From Escherichia coli O127:H6 str. E2348/69 (lineage in GTDB: Bacteria > Pseudomonadota > Gammaproteobacteria > Enterobacterales > Enterobacteriaceae): a DNA stretch of 64,000 nt. Position numbers and translations under genes: made by a program. Location of the stretch: NCBI RefSeq assembly GCF_000026545.1, contig NC_011601.1; one strand, given 5' to 3'. Positions 2,477-18,477 of this stretch are shown piece after piece; position 1 is the stretch's first letter; the number at the start of each line of letters is the position of its first letter. The notes under the pieces were generated by a model. The model was not told where the DNA came from. It ran no database searches and saw only the letters and a program-made list of their open reading frames with translations.

Positions 2477-3355
2477 ATGCCGCAACATGACCAATTACAT
2501 CGCTATCTGTTTGAAAACTTTGCCGTTCGCGGCGAACTGGTAACCGTTTCGGAAACCCTGCAACAGATCCTTGAGAATCACGATTATCCGCAGCCCGTTA
2601 AAAACGTGCTGGCAGAACTGCTGGTTGCGACCAGCCTGTTAACCGCTACGTTGAAGTTTGATGGTGATATCACCGTACAGCTGCAAGGCGACGGTCCGAT
2701 GAATCTGGCGGTTATTAACGGTAACAACAACCAGCAGATGCGCGGTGTGGCGCGCGTGCAGGGCGAAATTCCAGAAAATGCCGACCTGAAAACGCTGGTC
2801 GGCAATGGTTACGTGGTGATCACCATCACTCCGAGCGAAGGCGAACGCTATCAGGGCGTGGTTGGTCTGGAAGGTGATACCCTAGCGGCCTGCCTGGAAG
2901 ATTACTTTATGCGTTCTGAACAGCTGCCGACGCGCCTGTTTATTCGCACCGGCGACGTAGACGGCAAACCGGCTGCAGGCGGAATGTTGTTGCAGGTAAT
3001 GCCTGCGCAAAATGCCCAGCAGGACGACTTTGACCACCTGGCAACGCTAACCGAAACCATCAAAACCGAAGAACTGCTGACTTTACCGGCAAACGAAGTG
3101 TTGTGGCGTTTGTATCACGAAGAAGAGGTGACGGTTTACGATCCGCAGGATGTGGAGTTCAAATGCACCTGCTCGCGTGAACGTTGCGCCGATGCGCTGA
3201 AAACGCTGCCTGATGAAGAAGTCGATAGCATCCTGGCGGAAGATGGCGAAATTGACATGCATTGTGATTACTGCGGTAACCACTATCTGTTCAATGCGAT
3301 GGATATTGCCGAGATCCGCAACAACGCGTCTCCGGCAGATCCGCAAGTTCATTAA
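2477..3355 (+). CDS. hslO: Hsp33 redox-regulated chaperone
   Basis: 292 aa from [13 protein letters not shown]-terminal zinc centre CTCSRERC ... CDYCGNHY is diagnostic. Confidence 0.93.
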
Positions 3356-3417
3356 TGAGTATGTCCGGCAGAGAGGACTCTGCCGGATTTTACGACTAAT
3401 ACACCTGATGCGCTTTG

Positions 3418-5142
3418 TCACTCATTCAGATTCACATCCAGCCTTTCACCATCCACTACAAGATCGCGCCACGCTTTAGGCCTCGTCCCCAGCTTTCCAT
3501 CCTTCGCAGCAGCGAGTAATTTTTCTTTCGTTATTTGGCGCGGAAGTAAACTCATATCAAGCGCGTCCCATTCTTTTCTGGCTGAGTCAAAGCCATAGAC
3601 AATGACTCTGTCATCATTAAAAGCAAACAGGATCCGCTCCGCCTGACCATCACTATTCAGATCTTGCTCGACCAGTACGCAGGCGTCTTTTTCAATACAG
3701 GTCATCACGTTATAGCGATCCTGGATTAAGGCCGACCAGAATGTCGCATCCGGTTTACCAGAACCTGGGGCAATTAACACATTATCGGCTAATACTTTTT
3801 CCGATACCTGTTCCTGAAGATGTTGCTCTCCATCTAACGCCATCAGCAGATCCCGCGCGCGTTTCGGGTCTTTCATATACTCGGCATCGCTTTTCAGCGA
3901 CTCAAGCGCCGCACGTCCATAGCGACCGCTCTGTTCGAGCATGTAGATAGTTACCTGGTCTGGCGTGTTTTTGCCGCTCTGATAACGCGCCATATGACTG
4001 TTCACGCTAATGCGCATACTGTCCAGCACCGGCGAATTAAGAAGCACCAGTATTACCAACACCAATAACGAAACCGCAAGGTTCACTTTGCCCTGAAGAT
4101 CAAGGGGATTTTGCCCTTTACGCCAGACGATACTGACAAAATACCCCAGCGACCATACCAGTAACACCAGCACCGCCAGCACGCCCTGCAAGCGGTCGGC
4201 AGTCCAGCCGTACTGAGCGACCCGCAGCCATAACGCCCAGGCGGCGACGAACACATACAGCGGAGCAACCAGCAAAGCGGTTTTAATCAGGCAACGCAAT
4301 GGCCCCGTCCAGGGAAGTGACGCTTTTTGCGGATCGCGGACAATAGCCATTAAGATCAATTGCAAAAAGGCCAGCGTTAACAGCAACCCAGCGGCGGAGA
4401 TGTGGCGAGAAATCGCGCTCAGGCCCGTAAACGGCAGGGTGATAATAAACATCAGGGTTAGCAATGATACTAACGGCAGCAACCCCGTGGCGATTAACGT
4501 GAACAACTTTTGAATAGAGTCGATTAAACGTGACTGTGTTCGCGCGAGGATCACCGCCAGCGCGGTAGCCAGACCTAACGTGAGATAAATAAACCAGTCG
4601 GTTGCAAAAAAGAGCGTTTTGAAAAACGTGATGCCAACAAGTTTAAACAACTCACTCCACAGTAAAAGCACCAGCCACGTCAGGCCATTGGCGAGAAAAA
4701 TCACCAGTAATATAAGTACGTTATGCCATACAGACTGGTAAAAGTAGCGATAGCGGCTACTGTCATTGCGGATGCGAAGGCTTTGTTGTATCCACGGTAG
4801 CAACAACATTGCCATCAGCAGCAGATAGCAGCCAAAATCCCAAAGCGCCTTTTCAACTCTCCAGGGGGTCATGCCATCAGTTTGCCACTTCAGCCAGCCG
4901 CTCATTCCCAGCGTGGCAATAAACACCAGCGCCAGCCATCCCCAAAGGCGCTTCTGTTTAAAGGAGATCACGGAGAAGAGTAAAACGGATGAAAACGCGA
5001 CGGTCGCAGGCACGCCATAAACAATCCAACTGAGATTTTTTCCGGCAAGCCAGGCGATCAGCAGGTAGCAAACCAACCCCTGAAGTAATCCGGTAGCAAT
5101 CATCCCCCAGCGTGTTGCCGGTGAAAGTTCAACGTTATCCAT
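3418..5142 (-). CDS. yhgE: Polytopic inner-membrane protein YhgE (function unknown)
   Basis: 574 aa, strongly hydrophobic N-terminal two thirds with soluble C-terminal domain; position between hslO and pck as in K-12. Confidence 0.85.
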
Positions 5143-16385: not shown

Positions 16386-16407
16386 CCATACTCCATCGCC
16401 TGTTTTG

Positions 16408-16442
16408 AAAAGCCCGGTATGCGTTTGCATCCGGGCTTTTTT
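16408..16442 (+). terminator. Rho-independent terminator of the feo operon
   Basis: AAAAGCCCGG-TATGCGTTTGCAT-CCGGGC followed by TTTTTT. Confidence 0.8.
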
Positions 16443-16587
16443 GCGTGCGGCTTTCCATAAAAATGCAATTCTTGCAGTACAACGTAAGTTCCTCTGAAAG
16501 CATCTCGCAGGGATGAAAACTCGCTAATGCACAGGTGTGGAGTGGCGCGTAGAGTCACGGCATTCAAACAACAGGTGAAGGAACGCC

Positions 16588-17469
16588 ATGAGCAAAAAGC
16601 AGAGTTCCACCCCACATGATGCACTGTTCAAACTCTTTTTACGCCAACCGGACACGGCACGCGATTTTCTTGCGTTCCATTTACCGGCACCTATTCACGC
16701 GCTCTGTGATATGAAAACCCTCAAGCTGGAGTCGAGCAGCTTTATTGATGATGATCTGCGTGAAAGCTATTCCGACGTGCTGTGGTCGGTGAAAACGGAA
16801 CAAGGACCGGGATATATCTATTGTCTGATTGAACATCAAAGCACCTCAAACAAACTGATCGCATTTCGCATGATGCGTTACGCTATTGCCGCAATGCAAA
16901 ATCACCTGGATGCCGGATACAAAACGTTGCCGATGGTGGTGCCATTGTTGTTTTACCACGGCATTGAAAGCCCCTATCCCTATTCACTGTGTTGGCTGGA
17001 TTGTTTCGCCGATCCCAAACTGGCAAGGCAGCTTTATGCCTCTGCATTTCCGCTGATTGATGTCACTGTCATGCCTGATGATGAAATCATGCAGCACCGG
17101 CGCATGGCGCTGCTGGAGCTAATTCAAAAACATATACGTCAACGCGACCTGATGGGGCTGGTAGAGCAAATGGCCTGCTTATTAAGTAGTGGATACGCTA
17201 ATGACAGACAAATCAAAGGGCTGTTTAATTACATACTACAAACCGGCGATGCGGTACGTTTTAACGATTTTATCGACGGCGTTGCCGAACGTTCACCGAA
17301 ACACAAGGAGAGTTTAATGACTATTGCGGAAAGATTGCGGCAAGAAGGGTTTCAGAAAGGTATACGAGCTATCGCCAAAACCATGCTGGATGCCGGAGTC
17401 CCTCTTGAGGACGTTCTGCGATTTACCAGCCTGACGGTTGAAGACCTTGCTGAAATAAATCATCAATAA
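16588..17469 (+). CDS. rpnA: Rpn-family recombination-promoting nuclease / PD-(D/E)XK transposase_31-like protein (YhgA)
   Basis: 293 aa, [18 protein letters not shown]. In-frame internal ATG at 17317 preceded by SD AAGGAG would give a 50-aa C-terminal product. Confidence 0.88.
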
Positions 17470-17486
17470 CGTAAAGGATGGTTTTA

Positions 17487-17660
17487 ATGACAGATGCAGA
17501 AAGAGAATATCTTATTAGTTACCTGATTGGTTATTTATTGGGTCGACGCCTGGAAGCCCTGGATATCGCCAAAAGAATGCTGTAATCCGGAGTCCCTCTT
17601 GCAGACATCATGCGCTTTACCGGGGTGTCAGAAGAAGAGTTGGCTGCGGCGAGCCAGTAA
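17487..17660 (+). other. Degenerate second copy of the Rpn C-terminal tail cassette (SD + ATG + small ORF interrupted by an in-frame TAA)
   Basis: SD AAGGA then ATG 17487: MTDAEREYLISYLIGYLLGRRLEALDIAKRML, TAA 17583-17585, then in frame SGVPLADIMRFTGVSEEELAAASQ, stop 17658-17660. Parallels the RpnA tail ...[32 protein letters not shown]. Confidence 0.6.
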
Positions 17661-17688
17661 AGTTCTGTCTCGCCATTTCAAAAGCCAC

Positions 17689-18477
<789 letters not shown>

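Follow-up and report, generated by a model that had tools for sequence, protein, structure and literature searches.

Zhong et al. (2023) found that every E. coli rpn gene contains an internal start from which a small protein, RpnS, is made, and that RpnS is the antitoxin of the full-length nuclease, RpnL (PMC10400941). For rpnA of strain K-12, the small protein RpnA_S was lost in a K240R+E241D+M244L mutant (PMC10400941). Free-standing RpnS copies, termed rpnSs, were also described downstream of rpn genes, namely ypaA/rpnE_Ss after rpnE and, in some strains, rpnC_Ss after rpnC; each of them groups with the tail that its upstream gene encodes, and both deletion and fusion were described as ways in which they are lost (PMC10400941). 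Within the main text of that paper, to which this statement is confined, there is no rpnA example of an rpnSs (PMC10400941). We analysed a stretch of 64,000 nucleotides (nt) from E. coli O127:H6 str. E2348/69 (contig NC_011601.1; hereafter the window), in which rpnA is followed by a second, interrupted copy of the region that encodes its tail. The first of these two cassettes is already known and experimentally proven in K-12, while the second is a real homologous pseudogene of the rpnSs type at rpnA. We hold with good confidence that E2348/69 carries two tandem RpnS cassettes at rpnA, that copy 2 is a pseudogenised rpnSs, and that tail variation at this locus arises by recombination between the copies. 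The biochemically and structurally best-studied member of the family is in this way found to have a downstream rpnSs-type copy too, in about 16% of E. coli and in Escherichia ruysiae, which implies no new mechanism.

The layout of the locus recalls the orphan C-terminal cassettes of rhs and cdiA, where variable modules are stacked behind a conserved body, which homologous recombination can join to a module further downstream. In those systems the module consists of a toxin tip and a separate immunity gene and is used in inter-bacterial competition. The rpnA module, in contrast, is the oligomerisation and antitoxin domain of an intracellular nuclease, and only one spare copy is present, which has decayed.

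Two tail cassettes at rpnA of E2348/69

The gene order in the window is feoB-feoC-rpnA-bioH. The rpnA gene (yhgA; 16588-17469, + strand) encodes RpnA_L, a PD-(D/E)XK nuclease toxin of 293 amino acids (aa) with a C-terminal HTH_Rpn_C tail, and its open reading frame (ORF) is 100% identical to the rpnA annotated by RefSeq in E2348/69. With the RefSeq RpnA cluster bearing PF04754 and PF27070 the same ORF shares 97% identity, and RpnA is a full-length Rpn protein with a PD-(D/E)XK Transposase_31 N-terminal domain. Compared with K-12 RpnA_L and RpnA_S, the gene and the locus (feoC-rpnA-bioH) are the same, the N-terminal nuclease domain is about 95-97% identical, and the tail belongs to the same HTH_Rpn_C family. 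The two tails differ in sequence after residue 254: K-12 RpnA runs as in E2348/69 up to RQEG and then continues with EQSKALHIAKIMLESGVPLADIMRFTGLSEEELAAASQ to its stop.

The first cassette (tail 1) opens inside rpnA. The sequence AAGGAGAGTTTAATG (17305-17319) holds the Shine-Dalgarno (SD) motif AAGGAG (17305-17310, + strand), which coincides with codons K240 (17305-17307) and E241 (17308-17310), and an in-frame ATG at 17317-17319, which is codon 244 of rpnA (M244). From this ATG a 50-aa intragenic ORF (17317-17469, + strand) is predicted to give the C-terminal tail of RpnA as a separate small protein, RpnA_S. An earlier note on this DNA had proposed exactly such an internally started 50-aa tail and had connected it with the published Rpn tails and intragenic antitoxins. 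Both proposals hold, since the SD, the ATG and the surrounding start region are the same as in K-12, where M244 is the published, experimentally validated start of the antitoxin RpnA_S, and this part of the picture is already known biology (PMC10400941). Given the identity of the start region, RpnA_S is probably also produced in E2348/69 and would act as an antitoxin there. Tail 1 of E2348/69 is a rare allele, 4 aa shorter than most, and it matches the RpnA-S crystal sequence (PDB 7TH0) with E=1.2e-12 (phmmer).

The second cassette (tail 2; 17474-17662) consists of an SD, an ATG and 57 codons, and is broken by a TAA at codon 33. It lies directly downstream of rpnA on the same strand, in the gap between rpnA and bioH for which the RefSeq annotation of E2348/69 is empty, and its start is situated 17 nt past the rpnA stop. 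Specifically, the sequence AAGGATGGTTTTAATG (17474-17489) carries an SD-like AAGGA (17474-17478, + strand) 8 nt ahead of the ATG (17487-17489), and this motif is kept in every two-tail locus aligned. The recurrence of the SD-ATG arrangement after the rpnA stop had been noticed before, with the ATG at the right position and the beginning of the element, given as 17475, one base off. The 5' part of the pseudogene (17487-17585, + strand) comprises the ATG, 32 codons (MTDAEREYLISYLIGYLLGRRLEALDIAKRML) and the premature TAA (17583-17585), which is present as the earlier note had it; in many genomes this 32-aa ORF is called. The 3' part (17586-17662, + strand) encodes SGVPLADIMRFTGVSEEELAAASQ and closes with a terminal TAA at 17660-17662, so that the read-through translation of tail 2 is MTDAEREYLISYLIGYLLGRRLEALDIAKRML, a stop, SGVPLADIMRFTGVSEEELAAASQ and a second stop.

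The homology of tail 2 to RpnS tails is evident from the match of its 3' part to 7TH0 (E=1.1e-13, phmmer) and from the precomputed PF27070 match of its intact orthologues. In an AlphaFold (AF2) model of the repaired tail 2 (predicted local distance difference test, pLDDT, 91), helices span residues 3-33, 38-45 and 49-56, and the top PDB match of this model was again RpnA-S 7TH0 (probability 1.00, template modelling score, TM, 0.80). Helix 1 spans residues 3-33 in the model, so that the TAA at codon 33 is placed at its end and cuts the protein right after it; in E2348/69 the three-helix bundle is thus not complete in one uninterrupted ORF.

The similarity between the two cassettes is not due to chance. 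Aligned locally, tail 1 and tail 2 scored 61 at the DNA level, compared with 16.1±2.3 for shuffled sequences (maximum 27 in 1000), and 83 at the protein level, compared with 20.8±4.1 (maximum 42 in 2000). A repeat search returned a direct repeat of 83 nt with 75% identity (17370-17452 and 17564-17646, spacing 194) and one of 22 nt with 82% identity over the SD-ATG-MT.AER region (17313-17334 and 17483-17504, spacing 170). The two spacings differ by 24 nt, twice the length of the 12-nt (4-aa) unit that is typical of the Rpn tail family. For the distal half of tail 2, alignment scores ranged from 78 to 134 with RpnA tails and from 42 to 65 with other Rpn tails. Beyond its own orthologues, the nearest relatives of tail 2 are therefore RpnA tails, the type of tail encoded by the rpn gene just upstream, which indicates a local origin.

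Intact relatives and decay of the second cassette

A search with the repaired 57-aa sequence as the query gave ten proteins of the same length, all intact and with a match to Pfam PF27070 (HTH_Rpn_C). At the position of the E2348/69 stop these proteins have Q, Y or E, and in the alignments of intact relatives the codon corresponding to the inactivating nonsense TAA (17583-17585, + strand) is CAA, GAA or TAT. In E. ruysiae CP057804 the genes are arranged as feoB-feoC-rpnA (297 aa), the 57-aa ORF and bioH, with the small ORF beginning 17 nt past the rpnA stop, and an intact 57-aa ORF is also found at the rpnA locus of a few metagenomic or draft E. coli. The most fitting description of tail 2 is that of a pseudogene in the rpnSs class, derived from a free-standing rpnS copy downstream of rpnA that is still intact in E. 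ruysiae. The suggestion of the earlier note that a past tail swap had left a spare cassette stands as far as a homologous spare cassette is concerned; the cassette is more than the leftover of a swap, and the evidence leans towards the two-tail form as the source.

To describe the distribution of tail 2 we used 5426 complete E. coli genomes, in which the two-tail form was counted by the presence of the 5' part of tail 2. It was found in 853 of them (about 16%), and the downstream segment is hence not a conserved unrelated element of E. coli. An exact 28-mer spanning the TAA was present in at least 826 of these 853 genomes, and none of the complete E. coli genomes probed had TAT, CAA, GAA or TAC replacing TAA in the same context. 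Further lesions were seen in strain MEW, where tail 2 has ATG changed to AAG plus a second TAA, and in several frameshifted tail 2 versions in the protein database. In some records the tail 2 region has a pseudogene label from the Prokaryotic Genome Annotation Pipeline (PGAP), which notes an internal stop.

Between E. ruysiae and E. coli, the proportions of non-synonymous and synonymous differences (pN and pS) were 0.039-0.047 and 0.025-0.075 for tail 2, 0-0.005 and 0.17-0.22 for the N-terminal domain of rpnA, and 0.03 and about 0.3 for bioH. With the small counts at hand, the substitutions in tail 2 agree with relaxed constraint but not with strong purifying selection, and copy 2 appears to evolve without constraint.

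In several respects the rpnA cassette is like the published rpnSs. It is a small RpnS-like gene with its own start, placed directly after an rpn gene on the same strand and present in only some strains; it is nearest to the tail of its own upstream gene; and it can disappear through deletion or by being fused to the rpn body. It is unlike them in that it is a pseudogene in E. coli, owing to the TAA, and intact mainly in E. ruysiae, and in that its helix 1 (YLIS/YLIG/YLLG) departs from the published pattern of one hydrophobic and three charged or glycine residues.

Fusion alleles and the K-12 tail

The rpnA gene of K-12 encodes one tail only, with a locus shorter by 194-206 bp than the two-tail form. 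The K-12-type distal tail sequence is found downstream in E2348/69, within the broken second cassette: the 3' part of the K-12 tail and its flank are orthologous to the second half of the downstream cassette, and the similarity extends at near-identity over the rpnA 3' end and the downstream flank. The earlier remark that the second half of the downstream ORF parallels the RpnA C-terminus is accordingly borne out in a stronger form, as it is orthologous to the functional C-terminus of K-12 RpnA and RpnA_S, and for the same reason the spare tail and the functional tail of K-12 correspond to each other. The alignments define a 194-nt segment (17350-17543, + strand) of the two-tail allele that is missing from the K-12-type rpnA; it contains the distal part of tail 1, the stop, the spacer with the second SD and the first 19 codons of tail 2. 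K-12 joins CAGGAGGGG straight to GAACAATCC, and GGG(G) microhomology is present at both edges of the segment. The single tail of K-12 and of Escherichia whittamii corresponds to the 5' part of copy 1 followed by the 3' part of copy 2. Read from the alignments, both cassettes contributed to the K-12 RpnA tail that was crystallised (PDB 7TH0), which is a hybrid.

The K-12-type junction, RQEG/EQSK, is the most frequent arrangement in the collection, with at least 3551 of 5426 genomes, and those unmatched short alleles that were checked turned out to be single-nucleotide variants of the K-12-type form. A second fusion retains most of an E2348/69-like tail 1 and adds the last 14 residues of tail 2 (EDVLRFT/GLSEEELAAASQ); this RFT/GLSEE fusion (P0059/P0055) was found in 42 genomes, mainly O145:H28. 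The third fusion junction is IAK/IMLE (P0013). Among the two-tail alleles, a metagenomic one (L092) has the K-12 middle sequence within its second cassette (TTATTGGGG/GAACAATCC), and differs from K-12 by one 206-bp indel flanked by GGGG, while in another (L093) a K-12-like 3' part repairs the stop of tail 2. Alleles of the L092 and L093 types were not found in the complete E. coli genomes probed.

The tails also vary in length. Tail 1 of E2348/69 lacks 12 nt at 17366-17372 (4 aa, TNAL, after IR and ahead of IAK) that are present in most two-tail alleles, and 23 of 5426 complete genomes have its exact tail 1 allele. According to published work, the pairing specificity of the long and short proteins is altered when this tail helix changes by 4 aa (PMC10400941). 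E2348/69 and most other two-tail strains have a different RpnA tail from K-12, and so probably a different L/S pairing specificity. The natural allele series at rpnA (intact, nonsense, three fusion junctions and 4-aa indels) could be used to relate tail sequence to toxin-antitoxin specificity.

Over tail 1, E. ruysiae CP057804 (L084, 1819-1980) and E. coli AHB30 (L003, 768-929) show 0 differences in 162 nt, whereas for the same pair pS is 0.17 in the rpnA N-terminal domain and 0.31 in bioH. This identity of tail 1 between diverged flanks suggests a recent exchange of the tail region between the species. Judged by the range of alleles, the rpnA locus recombines repeatedly between its tandem tails.

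These data can be combined in one explanation. In both RpnS copies an SD and an ATG precede the sequence for a three-helix HTH_Rpn_C domain. Copy 1 (17305-17469) would be used twice, as the C-terminal oligomerisation tail of RpnA_L and, from M244, as the RpnA_S antitoxin. Copy 2 (17474-17662) would be inactivated by the TAA at codon 33, leaving at most a 32-aa helix-1 peptide to be made. The copies have diverged, including the two-unit (24-nt) difference in the helix-1 repeat region, and would still serve as substrates for in-register recombination. A deletion between them would then fuse the rpnA body to varying amounts of copy 2, with the K-12-type RQEG/EQSK, the O145:H28-type RFT/GLSEE and the third type, IAK/IMLE, as products. 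Since one stretch of DNA encodes both toxin tail and antitoxin, each event would change the two together, and the chimeras would therefore be tolerated.

In one carrier of the RFT/GLSEE fusion, E. coli GCA_012854275.1 (L091, 85-597), a GreA/GreB-family gene stands directly upstream of rpnA at the position expected for feoC, and the yhgF-feoABC region seems to be missing.

Competing explanations and other features of the locus

Within the explanation by tandem cassettes, a change from the long (two-tail) to the short (K-12 single-tail) form by deletion or fusion is slightly favoured, without being settled. It is favoured because the edges of the indel sit at in-register positions of both cassettes, because deletions happened at several different junctions, and because no outside donor was found in phages, plasmids or the protein database. 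For the inner 236 nt no phage match was obtained, and the 2 matches in the plasmid collection are records of 4.9 Mb that are apparently chromosomes. The 5' half of tail 2 was found at the rpnA locus only, among 5.8 billion proteins. A single search of contigs returned mostly distant paralogues, and as an outgroup only E. whittamii was informative. Outside E. coli, E. ruysiae and E. whittamii, rpnA orthologues that reach 90% identity did not turn up.

Several observations weigh against the tandem-cassette explanation or parts of it. The rpnA form is short in E. whittamii, long in E. ruysiae and of both kinds in E. coli, which does not settle the direction of change. The tail 2 ORF is intact in several E. 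ruysiae variants (P0005-P0009), which is unexpected for a long-dead gene, and because these variants keep the ORF intact, tail 2 may be functional in E. ruysiae. The TAA was read in 826 of the 853 two-tail E. coli genomes, the other 27 being without the exact 28-mer. The pN and pS values of tail 2 rest on 6-9 substitutions, with which neutrality and diversifying selection are not separable. The distal half of tail 1 is barely nearer to tail 2 than to some other Rpn tails (86 vs 82). In hydrophobicity the helix-1 region of tail 2 (YLIS-YLIG-YLLG) far exceeds the published repeat pattern; a period of 12 nt is only weakly kept in it (unit matches 9/12 and 7/12), and Tandem Repeats Finder made no call on these dodecamers. 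Finally, the published ribosome-profiling and tagging experiments were done in K-12 (PMC10400941), a strain without copy 2.

The strongest alternative, which corresponds to the tail swap of the earlier note, reverses the direction of change. A K-12-like ancestor with a single tail would have received a fragment that extends from the middle of an Rpn tail into the start of the next tail cassette, inserted in frame at RQEG/EQSK. RpnA would thereby have acquired a new distal tail, while the old one would have been displaced downstream, preceded by a new SD and ATG, and would then have decayed. The single 206-bp indel between K-12 and the L092-type allele can be read either way, the short form is that of the close relative E. 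whittamii and of the E. coli majority, and the identity of tail 1 between E. ruysiae and E. coli indicates recent lateral movement of this tail between flanks that have diverged (pS 0.17-0.31). Yet neither phages nor the plasmid collection supplied a donor, and the restriction of the 5' half of tail 2 to the rpnA locus is also adverse. An inserted piece would, moreover, have to begin and end at exactly in-register positions, a pattern that unequal recombination of tandem copies gives automatically, and the three or more different fusion junctions show repeated deletion. We regard this insertion as unlikely, though it deserves more weight than any of the other alternatives.

It is improbable, in our judgement, that the tandem RpnS cassettes form a recombination-based diversification module, in which the untranslated cassette exchanges with the expressed one, possibly via breaks made by RpnA, and matched tail and antitoxin specificities are generated under phage pressure. 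If this were true, the tail crystallised from K-12 would be one such chimera. Slightly more doubtful still is the proposal that copy 2 is a silent reservoir, untranslated and selectively retained, whose recombination with copy 1 gives new matched specificities under phage pressure. Chimeric alleles do occur in otherwise normal rpnA genes (the K-12 type, the O145:H28 type in its 42 genomes, P0013, and the P0053 mosaic 'ADVLRFT'), and in the view of Zhong et al., offered as speculation, RpnL itself might initiate recombination of this kind (PMC10400941). Every fusion seen, however, is a deletion that destroys the reservoir; non-reciprocal conversion that keeps both copies was demonstrated in no case, the mutations in copy 2 look neutral, and the second copy is missing from 84% of genomes.

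A function of the 32-aa ORF (17487-17585) itself has, we believe, little probability. As a helix-1-only peptide it would pair with the long helix of RpnA_L or RpnA_S and tune the toxin, and the TAA would be an adaptive truncation. In line with this, the SD and ATG are kept, the TAA is nearly fixed (826 of 853), and in the model it lies exactly at the boundary of helix 1 and the loop; helix 1 is the dimer interface in the RpnA_S crystal (PMC10400941). Co-transcription with rpnA is also plausible, as a crude consensus scan of the + strand between the tails gave no promoter and no terminator-like site. Near-fixation is, however, also predicted by clonal descent, the 113-nt 5' part being at least 99% identical in 809 of 853 genomes, and strain MEW has lost the ATG and has its second stop inside the 32 codons. 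The substitutions in tail 2 are mostly non-synonymous, and helix 1 has 8 more residues in tail 2 than in tail 1, with a very different sequence, while in RpnC one added 4-aa repeat abolishes cross-neutralisation (PMC10400941). That the match is a product of chance or low complexity and the downstream region ordinary intergenic DNA, for which only the short length of the segments speaks, is already refuted by scores 15 to 19 standard deviations above shuffles, by the intact homologous ORFs with HTH_Rpn_C at the same position in E. ruysiae and by the orthology of the tail 2 3' half to the K-12 tail.

Downstream of the tandem cassettes lies bioH (17689-18459, - strand; ORF and RefSeq), which is convergent with rpnA. 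A candidate hairpin at the start of tail 2 (inverted repeat 17454-17474/17519-17539, 81% complementary) was rejected, as folding of 17445-17550 was no better than shuffles (z=+0.86). The mechanical ORF list contains a 50-aa antisense ORF over tail 1 (17314-17466, - strand), and nothing supports its status as a gene. The sole match of the Rfam scan was RF02424 in the feoC-rpnA intergenic region (16407-16540, + strand), which at 25.6 bits is below the gathering score of 70, is probably noise and is irrelevant to the tails.

Other rpnA alleles have lost the N-terminal part or are interrupted. In E. coli strains 1105 (L095, 324-917) and 23366 (L096, 543-917), rpnA is annotated as a pseudogene without its N-terminus, and the SD, the internal ATG and a full short-type tail are kept; this could be an antitoxin-only remnant. 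In E. whittamii NZ_JACSQI010000009.1 (L005, ~3160-4400), rpnA is split near codon 215 by an element encoding a 376-aa protein, which from the appearance of its sequence alone we take to be a TnpB of the IS200/IS605 type, and beyond this inserted element the K-12-type tail and bioH are intact.

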